A stretch of 64,000 nucleotides of DNA, taken from assembly GCF_055900595.2 (NCBI RefSeq), contig NZ_CM148325.1. The stretch is one strand, 5' to 3'. The notes beneath the pieces are model-generated. The model saw nothing but the letters and a program-made list of their open reading frames with translations. It was not told the origin of the DNA and made no database searches. Shown here in pieces: positions 24,430-29,466 of the stretch. Every line of letters begins with the position of its first letter. The first letter of the stretch is position 1. The translations under genes and the position numbers were made by a program.

Positions 24430-24461
24430 AAAAATGCCAGCCTTCGGGCTGGCATTTTTTA
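24430..24461. terminator. Bidirectional intrinsic terminator between eno and the convergent TPM gene
   Basis: AAAAATGCCAGCC-ttcg-GGCTGGCATTTTTT, flanked by A-run and T-run. Confidence 0.8.
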
Positions 24462-24469
24462 TGGCTGAG

Positions 24470-25375
24470 TTACCAGCGGCCAGACGCGCCGCCACCGCCA
24501 GAAGAACCGCCACCTCCGCTAAATCCGCCGCCACTTGAGCCGCCACCGGAAGAGGATGAAGAAGAACCTTTTCTTGAAGCTCTTTCTTTACCGAGCGTCT
24601 TGTATTTGGCTCGTAGCTTTTTATTAACGATAAGCCAAAAGATAAGCAGCGCTACGATCGCAAAAGGCGTTAACATACCGCAGGCAACGATTAAATTCGT
24701 CCATGGTCCTGGCTCGGCAACATAGAGGAATACCATCCCGTAAATTGCGGCAGTGAGAGTTATCCAGGGTAGATTCGACGGATCGGTAAAAACAATAAAA
24801 TATGAAAGCACTGCCAGCAATATAAGTACAGCAAGCGAAAATGGGATAGGGGGATTGATACTGTAATAATTCCCCCTGCCTTCCGGTAATTCACCATTCA
24901 TCAGAAGTGCGCCGATATTTTCGCTTGCCAGTGTTACCCCCCCCATCAGGTCATCACTTTTGAAAGCAGGGATTAATATATCACGGATAATCTTTGCCGC
25001 TTGCAGGTCGGTAACCACCCCTTCCAGCCCATAGCCGACTTCTATACGAACAGCATGATCTTCCCAGGCAACCAGAAGTAAAATGCCATCGTTTCGCTGC
25101 TTATCTCCCAGTTTCCAGCTATCAAAAACGCGTGTTGCATATTGTTCAATGGTATCGTCTCCGGTGGATGGCACTATTAATACGGCAACCTGTGCCCGTG
25201 TTTTTTGTGTAATATCCTGCAGCTGTTGTGTCAGTGATTGTTGTTCAGACGTGCTTAAGGTACCAGTAATATCGGTCACATGTTGGCGCAGCTCCGGCAC
25301 AGCAATTTGCTGGGCAAGCACAGGAAGGCACCATAAAGTGAGTAGAAAAAGGATTATACGCATAACGATCACCAA
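24470..25375 (-). CDS. TPM-domain membrane protein (YgcG family), paralog 1
   Basis: 301-aa ORF with signal peptide, TPM-like region, two TM segments and Gly/Ser tail ending GGGASGRW. Confidence 0.8.
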   Translation of the reverse strand: MVIVMRIILFLLTLWCLPVLAQQIAVPELRQHVTDITGTLSTSEQQSLTQQLQDITQKTRAQVAVLIVPSTGDDTIEQYATRVFDSWKLGDKQRNDGILLLVAWEDHAVRIEVGYGLEGVVTDLQAAKIIRDILIPAFKSDDLMGGVTLASENIGALLMNGELPEGRGNYYSINPPIPFSLAVLILLAVLSYFIVFTDPSNLPWITLTAAIYGMVFLYVAEPGPWTNLIVACGMLTPFAIVALLIFWLIVNKKLRAKYKTLGKERASRKGSSSSSSGGGSSGGGFSGGGGSSGGGGASGRW

Positions 25376-26517
25376 CGGCCGGATGAACCGCCACCGCCAG
25401 AAGAACCGCCGCCACCGCGGAAAGAGTTTTTCGACGAAGAGCGAGAATGAGCATTACGATTCCCCATTTTCCTGTTGATTTTATGTCCTGATCCCAGTTT
25501 AAGATTGCCAGTAAATTTGGCCACAATGATCAGCAGAACGATGCCAGCAATGGTTATTGGGCCGATAAAATGATCAATTAGCCCAATAATTGTTGAGATG
25601 AACGCAATATCTTTATTACTGGCAAATACCAGGCACCATCCCACAACAATTATCAGCAGCACGACAAACAATGAATTTCGTCCTGATTCACGAACCTGCG
25701 GAGCCTTCTTTTGTTTTTTCACTTTAGCGTTTTTATTTTGGGGGGCCAGCATCATAGGAAATGCGCGGCATATATTAAAAACTACCGCGAGACGCTGCCA
25801 GTAGATTGCTGCGAAAAATAAACTAAAACAAACGACCGATACCCGTCGAATGATGACATCGTTCTGAAAGCAGAAAAACCAGACCATAGGGGTAATCATC
25901 GATATCATCCATATGCCAGGCCCTGGATGGGTGGTAAATCGCCAGAGGACAACGATGGCAACGATCATCAGCAGTGTCCAGGCAAGACATGGCAGAGAGC
26001 GTTGCGGATTAGCAAACAGATGATTGGCTAAAGCATCCAAAGGGCTAAGATTCGCTTTTATATAGGTAAACTGTGCAATGCCTTCAATTCCCTGCGTTAA
26101 CCCGGAGAAGAGATTATTTTTTTTGAATTCCGGTTGCATATGGTAATGAACAATTTGCGCAGCTTGTTCCGGTGGCAGCATCTCTTCCAGTCCATGCCCA
26201 ATCTTCATTGACGCCAGCCCTTCCGGCCAAACGACGAGAATTAAGATACCTTCGCCGTACCGCTTCTCTCCAACAGGTTTCCAGTGATATAACCCGTAGC
26301 TTTGCGAGGCTGCAAGTTTAATGTCTTTACCCCCAGTGGTCGGCGTTACCAACACGGCAACCTGAAAGTGGTTTTGCTGCTCGAGAGTCTGTAATTGTTG
26401 AGTTAAAGCAGTTTGTTCTTCTGTCGTTAATGTCCCGGTTAAGTCAGTTACTGAAGGCAATTGTTCAGCGAATGCCTGGAAACCACATAGCATCAGAAGT
26501 AAGAGAAAAATACGCAT
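25369..26517 (-). CDS. TPM-domain membrane protein, paralog 2 (extended multi-TM region)
   Basis: 382-aa ORF, signal peptide plus TPM-like N-terminus, about five hydrophobic segments, tail GGGGSSGGGGSSGRW. Confidence 0.75.
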   Translation of the reverse strand: MRIFLLLLMLCGFQAFAEQLPSVTDLTGTLTTEEQTALTQQLQTLEQQNHFQVAVLVTPTTGGKDIKLAASQSYGLYHWKPVGEKRYGEGILILVVWPEGLASMKIGHGLEEMLPPEQAAQIVHYHMQPEFKKNNLFSGLTQGIEGIAQFTYIKANLSPLDALANHLFANPQRSLPCLAWTLLMIVAIVVLWRFTTHPGPGIWMISMITPMVWFFCFQNDVIIRRVSVVCFSLFFAAIYWQRLAVVFNICRAFPMMLAPQNKNAKVKKQKKAPQVRESGRNSLFVVLLIIVVGWCLVFASNKDIAFISTIIGLIDHFIGPITIAGIVLLIIVAKFTGNLKLGSGHKINRKMGNRNAHSRSSSKNSFRGGGGSSGGGGSSGRW

Positions 26518-26531
26518 TTCAATTCCTTTTG

Positions 26532-27464
26532 TTACCAGCGCCCGGAGGCGCCACCGCCGCCAGATGAACCGCCGCCGCCGCTGAAATTATCATTGTCAAA
26601 AGAGGATGAAGAGGAAGATGACGACGATGATGAAGAACGCCTGGAGGCCGAGTTACTTCTTTCGTAATGTGACGGTCGGTTGGCACTGCGCATCGAATCC
26701 CGAACCTTTTTGCCGAAGGGGGTAAAAGCGATGGCGACAGCCAGGAACGGTGTGGCGAAGCAGAGTAATGTTGCGAGTACTCCCCAGCTTCCGCTGAAAC
26801 CTGCTATAGGTAAAACAAAGGCCAGTACAATAGCTGTGAAGCAAATTAGTCCCAGCGTTTTGACATATCCTCTGGCGGAAATAAAGGTCAGTACTATTGC
26901 CCAGACTAACAAAGCCCACCAACCGTTAAAGGGCAAAGGGTGATCGGTCGGTGTTATCGTTGCTAAATTATTCCCCGTCAGACGATTATCAATATCGCTT
27001 ATTCCCTTTTGCAAGCCGCCAGCCAGGTCGCCATTTTTAAATGCCGGAATAATACTGTTGCGAATAATTTTCCCGGACTGCGCATCCGTAATAACGCCTT
27101 CCAGTCCGTAACCGACTTCAATACGCACGGTATGATCCTGCCAGGCGACTAACAGTAGAACGCCATCATCGCGGTCTTTATCACCCGGTTTCCAGCTATC
27201 GAATACCCGCGTAGCGTACTGCTCGATGGTTTCATCGCCCGTTGTTTCAACCACTAACACGACCAGTTGTGCGTGGCTTTTTTGCGTCAGCTCTTTAATC
27301 TGATTGGTCAACGTATTTACTTCATCGTTCGTCAATTTGCCGGTTAAGTCATTCACATACCTGGGTGATTCAGGTACTGGAATTTGTATGGCAAACACAG
27401 ATGAACAAAAGAAAGCCATAAGGAAGATAAAATTTCGCACAGGACTTCCTCGCTTAATGAGCAT
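26532..27464 (-). CDS. TPM-domain membrane protein, paralog 3
   Basis: 310-aa ORF, strongly similar to paralog 1 through ATRVFDSWKPGDK...LLLVAW..HTVRIEVGYGLEGV; Ser run and tail GGGGSSGGGGASGRW. Confidence 0.8.
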   Translation of the reverse strand: MLIKRGSPVRNFIFLMAFFCSSVFAIQIPVPESPRYVNDLTGKLTNDEVNTLTNQIKELTQKSHAQLVVLVVETTGDETIEQYATRVFDSWKPGDKDRDDGVLLLVAWQDHTVRIEVGYGLEGVITDAQSGKIIRNSIIPAFKNGDLAGGLQKGISDIDNRLTGNNLATITPTDHPLPFNGWWALLVWAIVLTFISARGYVKTLGLICFTAIVLAFVLPIAGFSGSWGVLATLLCFATPFLAVAIAFTPFGKKVRDSMRSANRPSHYERSNSASRRSSSSSSSSSSSSFDNDNFSGGGGSSGGGGASGRW

Positions 27465-28056
27465 TAGTATTCTGGCTAAAATCTATTGTCGGGGCTTTAC
27501 TCACAGCGGCGACATCATCCGGCAAATAATTTTTCTTTGGTGTGTAATCCATAACCTTTGCGGTTAACACTGCGGGGAATTTGCGGATAGTGACATTATA
27601 TTGTTCAATAGCTTTAATATATCTTCCTCGCGCAACGGCAATTCGATTTTCACTTCCTTCGAGCTGTACCATCAAATTTTGATAGAGTTCCTGGGCCTTT
27701 AGCTCAGGGTAACGTTCACTAATTATCGTTAACTGACCGAGAGTGCGAGACACCTGCGCCTGAGCTTGTTGCCAGGTTTGTAATTTTTGTTCATCTCCCG
27801 GAGTTTGCTGAAGAGCACTACTGGCGCGATTAGCCTGACTACGTGCCAATGTTACGGCTTCCAGTACCTCTTGTTCATGGCTGGAATAACCTTTAATACT
27901 GGCGACAAGATTAGGAATAAGATCGGCGCGACGTTGATATTGATTTAATACCTCAGACCAGGAAGCGTTAACCTGCTCATCATAGGTTTGAATATCGTTA
28001 TATCCACAGCCTGATAAATTGAAAATAAATATAATTACGATGAATGTTCTGAGCAT
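27454..28056 (-). CDS. lemA: LemA-family protein
   Basis: 200-aa ORF with N-terminal lipoprotein-like signal (LSGCGY) and coiled-coil-rich body typical of LemA; stop overlaps the start of TPM paralog 3. Confidence 0.8.
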   Translation of the reverse strand: MLRTFIVIIFIFNLSGCGYNDIQTYDEQVNASWSEVLNQYQRRADLIPNLVASIKGYSSHEQEVLEAVTLARSQANRASSALQQTPGDEQKLQTWQQAQAQVSRTLGQLTIISERYPELKAQELYQNLMVQLEGSENRIAVARGRYIKAIEQYNVTIRKFPAVLTAKVMDYTPKKNYLPDDVAAVSKAPTIDFSQNTNAH

Positions 28057-28128
28057 GGTTAAATCCCTTTTAATTAATTCCTTAAAACATAATACGCCAC
28101 TTCATTTTATTCTTTATGATCTAATCCA

Positions 28129-28137: not shown

Positions 28138-29466
28138 CTGAGAGATCCCCTCATAATTTCCCCAAAACGTAACCATGTGTGAATAGATTTTGAGTAAGCA
28201 GGGTTGCAGCCACGAGTGAGTCTTCCCTTGTTATTGTGTAGCCAGAATGCCGCAAAACTTCCATGCCTAAGCGAACTGTTGAGAGTACGTTTCGATTTCT
28301 GACTGTGTTAGCCTGGAAGTGCTTGTCCCAACCTTGTTTCTGAGCATGAACGCCCGCAAGCCAACATGTTAGTTGAAGCATCAGGGCGATTAGCAGCATG
28401 ATATCAAAACGCTCTGAGCTGCTCGTTCGGCTATGGCGTAGGCCTAGTCCGTAGGCAGGACTTTTCAAGTCTCGGAAGGTTTCTTCAATCTGCATTCGCT
28501 TCGAATAGATATTAACAAGTTGTTTGGGTGTTCGAATTTCAACAGGTAAGTTAGTTGCTAGAATCCATGGCTCCTTTGCCGACGCTGAGTAGATTTTAGG
28601 TGACGGGTGGTGACAATGAGTCCGTGTCGAGCGCTGATTTTTTCGGCCTTTAGAGCGAGATTTATACAATAGAATTTGGCATGAGATTGGATTGCTTTTA
28701 GTCAGCCTCTTATAGCCTAAAGTCTTTGAGTGACTAGATGACATATCATGTAAGTTGCTGATAGGTTTCCAGTTTTCCGCTCCTAGGTCTGCATATTGTA
28801 CTTTTCCTCTTACTCGACTTAACCAGTACCAACCCAGCTTCTCAACGGATTTATACCATGGCACTTTAAAGCCAGCATCACTGACAATGAGCGGTGTGGT
28901 GTTACTCGGTAGAATGCTCGCAAGGTCGGCTAGAAATTGGTCATGAGCTTTCTTTGAACATTGCTCTGAAAGCGGGAACGCTTTCTCATAAAGAGTAACA
29001 GAACGACCGTGTAGTGCGACTGAAGCTCGCAATACCATAAGCCGTTTTTGCTCACGGATATCAGACCAGTCAACAAGTACAATGGGCATCGTATTGCCCG
29101 AACAGATAAAGCTAGCATGCCAACGGTATACAGCGAGTCGCTCTTTGTGGAGGTGACGATTACCTAACAATCGGTCGATTCGTTTGATGTTATGTTTTGT
29201 TCTCGCTTTGGTTGGCAGGTTACGGCCAAGTTCGGTAAGAGTGAGAGTTTTACAGTCAAGTAAGGCGTGGCAAGCCAACGTTAAGCTGTTGAGTCGTTTT
29301 AAGTGTAATTCGGGGCAGAATTGGTAAAGAGAGTCGTGTAAAATATCGAGTTCGCACATTTTGTTGTCTGATTATTGATTTTTGGCGAAACCATTTGATC
29401 ATATGACAAGATGTGTATCCACCTTAACTTAATGATTTTTACCAAAATCATTAGGGGATTCATCAG
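28138..29466 (-). mobile_element. IS10 (IS4 family), complete 1329-bp copy
   Basis: Ends CTGAGAGATCCCCTCATAATTTCCCC (inside end) and, on the reverse strand, CTGATGAATCCCCTAATGATTTTGGT (outside end); exact length 1329 bp; 402-aa transposase; flanked by 9-bp direct repeat. Confidence 0.93.
28151..29359 (-). CDS. IS10 transposase
   Basis: 402-aa ORF MCELDILHDSLYQFCPELHLKRLNSLTLACHALLDCK... Confidence 0.93.
   Translation of the reverse strand: MCELDILHDSLYQFCPELHLKRLNSLTLACHALLDCKTLTLTELGRNLPTKARTKHNIKRIDRLLGNRHLHKERLAVYRWHASFICSGNTMPIVLVDWSDIREQKRLMVLRASVALHGRSVTLYEKAFPLSEQCSKKAHDQFLADLASILPSNTTPLIVSDAGFKVPWYKSVEKLGWYWLSRVRGKVQYADLGAENWKPISNLHDMSSSHSKTLGYKRLTKSNPISCQILLYKSRSKGRKNQRSTRTHCHHPSPKIYSASAKEPWILATNLPVEIRTPKQLVNIYSKRMQIEETFRDLKSPAYGLGLRHSRTSSSERFDIMLLIALMLQLTCWLAGVHAQKQGWDKHFQANTVRNRNVLSTVRLGMEVLRHSGYTITREDSLVAATLLTQNLFTHGYVLGKL

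Follow-up and report, generated by a model that had tools for sequence, protein, structure and literature searches.

Tail repeats of three tandem TPM-domain genes at the eno-queE locus of E. coli: probable coding footprint of a conserved C-terminal motif, with rare deletions

The cassette and its three tail repeats

The window, that is, the whole stretch of 64,000 nucleotides that we analysed (contig NZ_CM148325.1 of RefSeq assembly GCF_055900595.2), carries a trio of TPM-domain genes on the minus strand, downstream of lemA and between eno and queE of E. coli (Table 1). All three products are recognised by Pfam TPM_phosphatase (PF04536) with 132.6, 80.4 and 139.9 bits against a gathering cut-off of 22.1, and LemA by its own family (PF04011; 164.7 bits, gathering score 26.2). 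As whole proteins the paralogs share 32-47% amino-acid identity. TPM1 likely starts at the ATG at 25363, and the PGAP orthologue of TPM3 starts at the position equivalent to the GTG at 27440. A CRISPR array neighbours the cassette.

Table 1. Genes, tail repeats and exact blocks at the TPM locus (positions of the window)
Feature	Position	Strand	Description
TPM1	24470..25375	-	TPM-domain membrane protein; ORF list, Pfam, hydropathy scan
TPM2	25369..26517	-	the paralog that diverges most (32-33% amino-acid identity with TPM1 and TPM3)
TPM3	26532..27464	-	ORF intact in the window
lemA	27454..28056	-	leads the four-gene cassette; ORF list, Pfam
T1 tail repeat	24469..24523	-	last 18 codons and stop of TPM1 (..GFSGGGGSSGGGGASGRW*); repeat search, self-BLAST, translation
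T2 tail repeat	25368..25422	-	end of TPM2 (..SFRGGGGSSGGGGSSGRW*); repeat search, self-BLAST, translation
T3 tail repeat	26531..26585	-	end of TPM3 (..NFSGGGGSSGGGGASGRW*); repeat search, self-BLAST, translation
23-nt block in T1	24489..24511	-	exact match to T2; CCGCCACCGCCAGAAGAACCGCC on the plus strand
23-nt block in T2	25388..25410	-	exact match to T1; the string quoted in the earlier note
T2/T3 exact block in T2, GGCGGCGGTTC	25403..25413	-	crossover position in natural TPM2-deletion alleles
T2/T3 exact block in T3, GGCGGCGGTTC	26566..26576	-	counterpart of the T2 block
Ser/Gly-rich low-complexity stretch 5' of T1	24524..24566	-	unalignable with T2 or T3
Poly-Ser tract and FDNDN segment 5' of T3	26586..26640	-	Ser run of 13 residues in the window, 7 in several other strains

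TPM1 consists of a signal-like leader, the TPM domain, three hydrophobic segments, a basic stretch and the Ser/Gly tail. A simple Kyte-Doolittle scan, used here in place of a dedicated topology predictor, gives the leader and three segments after the domain in TPM1 and TPM3 and about five segments in TPM2; the tail would be placed in the cytoplasm. A Gly-rich C-terminal extension has been noted in bacterial, non-photosynthetic homologues of Psb32 (preprint bioRxiv 10.1101/2025.05.08.652833), and the tails of these YgcG-type proteins fit that description, whereas Psb32 itself is without such an extension. The window proteins are not Psb32 orthologues, since they reach only 34.9 and 34.2 bits on the Psb32 equivalog (NCBIfam NF047379; curated cut-off 160). 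Likewise, LemA remains below the threshold of the MamQ equivalog (NCBIfam; 91.2 bits against 250), and a match of TPM1 to a YxzE-like bacteriocin (Pfam; 21.9 bits, cut-off 40) is low-complexity noise. Regarding function, the literature reports for the TPM domain only a low acid phosphatase activity of plant TLP18.3, and our search of the literature on LemA with the TPM domain and on ygcG returned no functional study of the cassette. PADLOC detected no known defence system in the four cassette proteins and the hypothetical protein of the type B allele described below. Adjacency to LemA is not constant in the gene context of the two distant relatives that were inspected.

An earlier note, made from the sequence alone, held that the three genes end in GGGSSGGGG...SGRW tails encoded by three near-identical direct repeats, which could drive deletion or gene conversion between paralogs and explain differences in gene number between strains. 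The tails and the repeats are there: translation gives GGGGSSGGGG(A/S)SGRW at all three C-termini, and the repeat search returns a direct family (D2) of 55 nt in three copies, with 80% (TPM2) and 84% (TPM3) identity to the copy in TPM1. The term "near-identical", however, is too strong. The self dot-plot of 24470-27464, proposed as a check, does display the three tails as matches of 48-54 nt (E 5e-11 to 2e-9), albeit imperfect ones, at 81-85% identity, and when the last 57 nt are aligned by codon the paralogs are 77-79% identical. Exact in-register runs in the window do not exceed 23 nt (T1/T2 23 nt, T2/T3 11 nt, T1/T3 9 nt). The longer spans that had been given for the first and third repeat, to 24560 and to 26640, include Ser/Gly-rich low-complexity DNA that cannot be aligned between copies, and the stretch 5' of T1 varies in in-frame length between strains. 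Apart from the tails, the dot-plot contains only 265 nt at 70% identity (the TPM domains of TPM1 and TPM3) and a 31-nt patch; at 81-85% DNA identity the tails stand out from the rest of the genes, which share 70% or less.

The peptide motif encoded by the repeats

A phmmer search with TPM3 against 1.84 billion cluster representatives gave 22,704 matches, and the C-terminus was scored on the best 150 of these 22,704. Among these 150, the motif [F/Y]SGGGGx[S/F]GGGGASGxW-COOH is present in 135, all ending in Trp within the motif, with Gly at positions -6, -7, -8, -12 and -13 in 99-100% and Ser at position -4 in 98%; five others have an aromatic-ended variant. Across many taxa, relatives of less than 50% identity keep the motif. 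On an unrelated metagenome contig of low GC, a pair of tandem TPM paralogs ends in this tail as well, with 88% DNA identity over 60 nt. Three DNA repeats exist in the window, in our opinion, because all three proteins share this family-conserved motif.

How much DNA similarity the shared peptide alone would produce was estimated by back-translating the window tail peptides with local codon usage. The simulated tails are 64-72% identical and the observed ones 77-79% (P 0.007-0.13). Most of the similarity can therefore be attributed to coding for the same peptide; as the observed values lie somewhat above the simulated range, shared ancestry or occasional short exchanges contribute as well. The 23-nt run of T1 and T2 is the only exact run clearly longer than the simulation expects (P <= 0.0014).

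We therefore favour, with a probability of roughly 0.85, the reading that the tail DNA is repeated because it encodes a C-terminal motif characteristic of the family, with rare deletions at microhomologies within the repeats, and that the strain difference in gene number results from allele replacement. Purifying selection would have kept the motif in all three tandem paralogs while the gene bodies diverged to their present distance, and the similarity of the tail DNA would be mainly a by-product of GGC and GGT codons for the same Gly-rich peptide, rather than evidence that the genes were duplicated recently or that their ends are still being homogenised. Short DNA repeats in tandem paralogs can thus be the plain footprint of a conserved peptide motif. 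The analysis also highlights how very strongly the C-terminus is conserved in a large, uncharacterised protein family.

One may go further and suppose that ..GGGGx[S/F]GGGGASGxW-COOH acts as a specific signal for recognition or anchoring, with LemA as one conceivable partner among others, and that the tandem TPM genes, since each of them ends in it, are modules exchangeable in frame. This appears unlikely to us. If true, recombination within the tail would always give an intact hybrid and keep the downstream gene junction, and a cell could dispense with one paralog or trade it for another without polar damage.

TPM gene number across E. coli

Our census of the eno-queE site covers 5,426 complete E. 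coli genomes and is provided here as a resource. The cassette (lemA with its TPM genes) is present in about 1,114 of them; loci with one TPM gene number 4,287, of which 340 are of a type that we call B and 3,947 of the K-12 type. The main difference between strains is thus three TPM genes against one. In type B the site holds 428 bp of unrelated DNA of 35% GC with its own ORF, a gene for a hypothetical protein of 120 amino acids, and a terminator, which excludes this type as a product of deletion between T3 and T1. The K-12 type has yqcG and a different 5' end of ygcG, AT-rich and unrelated to the missing genes; neither the 5' part of ygcG nor the 3' part of yqcG has a counterpart in the cassette, so that a simple deletion derivative is rejected here too. 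E. coli K-12 itself resembles the window in that ygcG is a TPM-domain gene at the same site, whose tail and downstream flank match T1 and the T1 flank at 89-95% identity; it differs in that ygcG is the sole TPM gene, that lemA is not intact, just its 5' end surviving in yqcG, and that the ygcG body cannot be aligned with TPM1.

The junctions of the one-gene alleles lie just past the TPM3 stop or in the part of the TPM domain encoding IEQYATRVFD, and do not run from tail to tail. In our reading, the large difference between lineages stems from the exchange of the entire eno-queE locus for other alleles, and not from recombination between tails.

These counts bear directly on the proposal that the tails are active substrates of recombination or conversion and the main reason why TPM number differs. 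Comparing the number of paralogs, as the earlier note suggested, does reveal loci with three, two or one TPM genes, and ten genomes with a tail-to-tail deletion; moreover, the T1 tail marks a boundary of the allelic mosaic. Yet the 3-versus-1 split, which is the bulk of the variation, comes with unrelated AT-rich DNA and non-tail junctions in 4,287 genomes, tail-mediated change is found in only 10 of about 1,114 cassettes, synthetic queries for T2xT1 and T3xT1 deletions and for a tandem duplication of TPM2 matched none of the complete E. coli genomes, and the tails are not homogenised in the 15 loci compared below. We regard the tails as main driver of copy number as largely refuted, and we give this explanation a very small chance. 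The repeats at the paralog ends are, in sum, an ordinary finding of little importance outside the eno-queE locus, and the idea that they shape it is partly supported.

There is nevertheless one respect in which the tail may carry more weight in recombination between alleles than the number of deletions implies. The T1 tail and eno flank are 89-98% identical among alleles whose gene bodies cannot be aligned, so that the tail coincides with a breakpoint of allelic exchange.

TPM2 deletions and possible exchanges between the tails

As substrates of deletion the tails fare better. A synthetic junction query (TPM1 start, tail and TPM3 body) against the same 5,426 genomes found an end-to-end T3xT2 match in 10 of the approximately 1,114 cassette-bearing genomes, in agreement with a count of 1,104 genomes with TPM2. 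The deletion loci, when fetched, consist of lemA, a TPM3/T2 hybrid and TPM1, and lack exactly 1,163 bp, the TPM2 unit. This length equals the spacing of the repeats, as expected for a deletion between direct repeats, and a single hybrid repeat remains, in which the T3 signature is followed by an exact block and then by the T2 signature. The exact block measures 16 nt in O157:H7 and 11 nt in strain 2017-02-2CC, and the lineage-specific bases that flank the crossover on either side differ between the two deletions; hence there were at least two independent events. The hybrid TPM3 is intact in 2017-02-2CC, while TPM3 of O157:H7 already has a nonsense codon.

In-frame exact blocks of 9-23 nt among the tails can serve as microhomology for such rare deletions. 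A T3xT2 event takes out one 1,163-bp unit and leaves an in-frame hybrid TPM3, and it preserves the stop-start junction of TPM2 and TPM1 (the TGA stop of TPM2 sits inside GTGATCGTTATG, in the start region of TPM1), so that the deletion itself causes no new disruption. The minimal exact segment for efficient RecA/RecBC recombination is 23-27 bp, as quoted in PMC12074656. Because the crossover blocks of 16 and 11 nt are shorter than this, we infer that the deletions would be independent of RecA, arising by replication slippage, template switching or sister-strand exchange (the last modelled by Lovett et al. 1993, as cited in PMC12074656). Only the T1/T2 pair of the window reaches 23 nt, yet no T2xT1 deletion was found among the complete E. 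coli genomes.

RecA-independent deletion between short direct repeats is known from E. coli K12 (Azpiroz and Lavina 2017, PMC5426353). The TPM2 alleles are similar in that they lose precisely one repeat period and retain one hybrid repeat, and in that the crossover falls within 11-16 nt, below 23-27 bp. They differ in being natural polymorphisms deduced from genome comparison, and in that the TPM tails are imperfect coding repeats held by selection on the peptide. At the wzy locus of Salmonella Typhimurium, excised between 113-bp direct repeats (PMC12074656), flanking repeats likewise allow some strains to lose a gene; the wzy repeats, however, are long and identical and the event is reversible and tied to phage resistance, whereas the TPM repeats are of 55 nt and about 80% identity and the events are rare. 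The TPM locus thus offers a clean natural case of microhomology that codes for a motif and has twice removed a gene precisely and in frame, one of these losses being found in the O157:H7 clone.

It could be objected that lemA-TPM3-TPM1, the two-gene arrangement, came first and that TPM2 was inserted at the tail, or else that the two-gene alleles are artefacts of assembly, and the direction of change indeed cannot be read from the junction sequence alone. We give very little credence to either. Most O157:H7 genomes have three genes, the O157:H7 deletion strains have the same protein accessions for LemA, TPM3 and TPM1 as intact O157:H7, and the O157 hybrid tail carries the O157-specific T2 codon GTC; as for artefacts, the junction is common to nine independent assemblies, and an exact identity of 11-16 nt is too short for assembly collapse.

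Gene conversion between paralogs, the other role envisaged for the repeats, has left hardly any trace. We compared the tails of 15 three-gene loci, the window and 14 that were fetched. Orthologous tails, taken from corresponding positions of different genomes, are 94.5-96.6% identical, and T1, T2 and T3 each retain a distinct synonymous signature in all 15 loci. An excess of paralogous identity within genomes was looked for in these loci and is absent, the values within and between genomes being 0.735 and 0.734 for T1/T2, 0.793 and 0.795 for T1/T3, and 0.763 and 0.754 for T2/T3. Recent tandem duplication or concerted evolution by repeated conversion of the 3' ends, which might be read from the islands of 81-85% in genes otherwise at most 70% identical and from a T2 patch of the window identical to T1, is thus refuted here and deserves next to no belief, as the proteins are just 32-47% identical, each position keeps its own signature in 15 diverged loci, identity within genomes equals that between them, and distant relatives from many taxa conserve the motif.

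The sole hint of homogenisation is that T2 patch. In the lineage of the window T2 reads TCT GGC GGT, against TCA GGA GGC in the 14 other T2 tails, and these three clustered synonymous changes within 7 nt all match T1, which yields the 23-nt exact run; the other 14 loci have T1/T2 runs of 9-14 nt, and in most genomes the longest exact run is that of T2 and T3, with 16 nt. The patch is a candidate for a single short gene-conversion tract of 7-23 nt, though the three changes may also have arisen by separate mutations or come from an allele outside the sample. Together with GGA CGC, which T2 and T3 have in common in strain W4, it suggests that micro-conversion does occur.

The cassette and its tail repeats

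The region belongs to the E. coli chromosome, with plus-strand pyrG and eno followed by a minus-strand cassette of four genes between eno and queE (see table). The three middle cassette genes score 132.6, 80.4 and 139.9 bits for TPM_phosphatase (Pfam; cut-off 22.1). The three are old paralogs: protein identity is 47% between TPM1 and TPM3, and TPM2 shares 32-33% with each of them. The nearest complete genome is that of strain Z0117EC0005, with a cassette identity of 99.9%.

Features of the eno-queE locus in window coordinates
Feature	Coordinates	Strand	Remarks
lemA	27454-28056	-	Pfam LemA
TPM3	26532-27464	-	Pfam TPM_phosphatase
TPM2	25369-26517	-	Pfam TPM_phosphatase
TPM1	24470-25375	-	Pfam TPM_phosphatase
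T1, tail of TPM1	24469-24523		direct-repeat family, reference copy
T2, tail of TPM2	25368-25422		direct-repeat family; 80% identical to T1
T3, tail of TPM3	26531-26585		direct-repeat family; 84% identical to T1
T1/T2 exact 23-mer	24489-24511; 25388-25410		one copy in each tail
Equivalents of 11-nt crossover block	25403-25413 (T2); 26566-26576 (T3)		
Low-complexity stretches	26586-26640; 24524-24566		upstream of tails
Inverted repeat	24430-24459		likely two-way terminator
IS10-type element	28138-29466		between lemA and queE; queE beyond it

The IS10-type element (named ISVsa5, IS4 family, in annotation elsewhere) lies about 80 nt upstream of lemA with a 9-bp target duplication, CTTTTTGCC, and may perhaps affect cassette expression. 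Z0117EC0005 lacks it, though otherwise 99.9% identical. The inverted repeat between the convergent eno and TPM1 genes is perfect over 13 nt, with a 4-nt loop and flanking A and T runs; type-B loci, a class described below, have a different hairpin at the matching site. In three relatives (L001-L003) the variable locus adjoins a CRISPR array, since one is annotated just downstream of queE, about 340 nt beyond.

A repeat search of the window returns one direct-repeat family with three members of 55 nt each. The earlier note had placed three near-identical repeats at the 3' ends of the TPM genes. The repeats are indeed there, but they are imperfect: a codon alignment of the last 57 nt puts tail identity at 77-79%. 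The self dot-plot of 24470-27464 that it proposed gives three tail HSPs (48-54 nt, 81-85% identity, E 5e-11 to 2e-9), together with 265 nt shared at 70% by the TPM1 and TPM3 TPM domains and one further 31-nt patch. As to extent, the 55-nt cores hold, but the extra length assigned to T1 and T3 is Ser/Gly-rich sequence that does not align. The longest exact in-register runs in the window are 23 nt (T1/T2), 11 nt (T2/T3) and 9 nt (T1/T3); the 23-mer is the very string that had been quoted, and these two copies are the only ones in the window.

Upstream of the tails, the low-complexity stretches vary in length while staying in frame, as do their equivalents in L004-L020. In TPM3 the Ser run is 13 residues long in the window versus 7 in several strains. 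In the TPM1 stretch, O157:H7 and TC_EC10 carry an additional SGGG, and PapM-32-1 is shorter by one residue.

The conserved tail peptide

All three window TPM proteins end in F(S/R)GGGGSSGGGG(A/S)SGRW. A phmmer search with TPM3 against 1.84 billion cluster representatives (E <= 0.001) gave 22,704 relatives. Among the best 150 of these, with pairwise identity of at most 50%, 135 have the motif with its terminal Trp and 5 more an aromatic-ended variant, the remainder being mostly fragments. In the same 150, Gly reaches 99-100% at positions -6, -7, -8, -12 and -13, Ser 98% at -4 and Ala 84% at -5; position -17 is usually aromatic. A 28% GC contig from an unrelated organism has two tandem TPM paralogs, each ending GYSGGGGSFGGGGASGSW, whose DNA is 88% identical over 60 nt. 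With the motif so widely conserved, also in this contig, the window repeats are the footprint in DNA of a conserved peptide.

When the window tail peptides were back-translated with codon usage from the cassette bodies or from pyrG/eno/queE, the expected identity was 64-72% versus the observed 77-79% (P 0.007-0.13), and the only clearly unexpected feature was the 23-nt T1/T2 run (P 0.0001-0.0014). Gly codons in the tails are nearly all GGC or GGT, whereas GGA and GGG make up about half of the Gly codons in the gene bodies; this restriction raises tail-tail similarity further. The preference may reflect avoidance of G runs, or of Shine-Dalgarno-like GGAGG, within runs of Gly codons. In a simple hydropathy scan TPM1 and TPM3 consist of a leader, the TPM domain, three hydrophobic segments, a basic stretch and the Ser/Gly tail, which suggests that the tail is cytoplasmic. 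A PADLOC scan gave no match for the cassette proteins, and no study of the cassette came up in literature searches.

Tests for conversion and deletion between tails

It had been proposed that the repeats could drive gene conversion or deletion between the paralogs. We compared the tails of the window and 14 other three-gene loci, drawn from across the identity range. Over 57 nt, orthologous tails in different genomes are 94.5-96.6% identical. Paralogous tails are no more alike within a genome than between genomes (T1/T2, 73.5% versus 73.4%; T1/T3, 79.3% versus 79.5%; T2/T3, 76.3% versus 75.4%), and each retains its own synonymous signature: T2 ends TCA TCC GxC CGT TGG TGA, T3 ends GCx TCC GGG CGC TGG TAA, and T1 has GGA TTT AGC. 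There is thus no concerted evolution of the tails, and conversion does not homogenise the paralogs. In a single case, T2 of the window and Z0117EC0005 reads TCT GGC GGT where the 14 other T2 tails examined read TCA GGA GGC; all three changes match T1 and generate the 23-nt run. The patch resembles a single short tract of conversion, 7-23 nt long. Strain W4 has a similar small T2/T3 sharing, GGA CGC.

Deletion fared better. With synthetic junction queries, too short for normal loci to match as one place, no genome matched end to end the T2xT1 junction (loss of TPM1) or the T3xT1 junction (loss of TPM2 and TPM1), nor did any of the 1,104 TPM2-bearing genomes match the junction of a TPM2 tandem duplication. 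The T3xT2 junction, left by loss of TPM2, was matched end to end by 10 genomes, those of strain 2017-02-2CC and nine O157:H7 strains; this agrees with the presence of the cassette in 1,114 genomes and of TPM2 in 1,104. The fetched loci read lemA-TPM3-TPM1. The O157 junction is GAC AAT TTT A[GC GGT GGT GGC GGT TC]T TCA GGA GGC GGC GGT TCA TCC GTC CGT TGG TGA. Ahead of the bracketed block, an exact match of 16 nt, the sequence bears the T3 signature of O157; past it, the T2 signature of O157 takes over, clone-specific GTC codon included. In 2017-02-2CC the switch lies within the 11-nt block GGCGGCGGTTC, and the lineage-specific flanking bases differ from those of O157. Both deletions are exactly 1,163 bp, in frame, with the TGA/start junction with TPM1 kept. 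Since the O157 deletion strains share identical LemA, TPM3 and TPM1 protein accessions with intact O157:H7, their deletion arose within the clone. T2/T3 is the pair with the longest exact run (16 nt) in most genomes. The tails mediate a rare and precise deletion of TPM2.

The crossover blocks, 11 and 16 nt, are shorter than the minimal RecA/RecBC segment of 23-27 bp (as quoted in PMC12074656), and E. coli K12 is documented to delete DNA between short direct repeats without RecA (PMC5426353). Hence we infer that TPM2 would be lost by replication slippage, template switching or sister-strand exchange at the motif-coding microhomology. Both elements, repeats from a conserved motif and microhomology deletion, are of known kind.

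In O157:H7, TPM3 (L006 2384-3277) is interrupted by a nonsense codon at position 225, the annotated protein being 224 aa long, and T2 encodes an unusual Val at -3. In this clone the cassette seems to be in decay, and selection against TPM2 loss is unlikely. In most other genomes (L003-L017) PGAP calls TPM3 "incomplete, missing C-terminus" over the same 672 nt, though the ORF is unbroken and, in the window, 310 aa long; the label is probably an annotation artefact.

Copy number across E. coli

Whole-locus searches of 5,426 complete E. coli genomes gave discrete classes: A, lemA plus TPM genes (about 1,114 genomes; 1,102 at >=80% cassette coverage); B, lemA, TPM3 and an unrelated 120-aa ORF with 35% GC and its own terminator (340); and C, the K-12 type, with yqcG and ygcG (3,947). 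Paralog number does differ by class, but the tails are not the main cause, as the boundaries between classes do not join one tail to another. Homology of type B to the window runs from lemA to the TPM3 stop codon only (86%) and resumes at the end of eno. The K-12 type matches A2 from eno to the IEQYATRVFD-coding part of the TPM domain, then only at the 5' end of lemA.

Class A has two forms, A1 with a window-like gene at the TPM1 position and A2 (e.g. NRG 857C) with a chimera there (L004/L005 310-1182 versus window 24470-25375), TPM1-like in its 5' part up to the IEQYATRVFD-coding motif and K-12 ygcG-like in the rest. A recombination breakpoint is thus marked by a second conserved-motif sequence as well. 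In sliding-identity alignments A1 and A2 share 95-100% identity between the start codon and the motif, 22-68% across the gene body and 93-98% from the tail start onward; A2 and K-12 share 90-100% between the motif and the end. The T1 tail moves together with the eno flank, which maps an allelic-exchange breakpoint to it; its role here is in recombination between alleles, not tandem paralogs.

The type-B protein (L002 1968-2330), hydrophobic and hypothetical, replaces TPM2 and TPM1; it has no Pfam-independent family match in NCBIfam or PADLOC, and the 340 type-B loci are 99-100% identical to each other. The first ~22 codons of yqcG and their upstream sequence (L001, K-12 DHB4, 2858-2998) are 78-91% identical to the lemA start region (window 28022-28120; KTFTKIIFIF versus LRTFIVIIFIF), the remainder being unrelated AT-rich sequence, so this K-12 small-protein gene looks like what is left of the 5' end of lemA. 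The same K-12 record marks ygcG (L001 1972-2844) as a pseudogene; its codon 39 is an in-frame stop. In one genome, that of strain E5, ISEcp1 is inserted in TPM2 (L009 1188-4003), and in L008 and L015 IS4 elements adjoin TPM1, replacing the end of eno.
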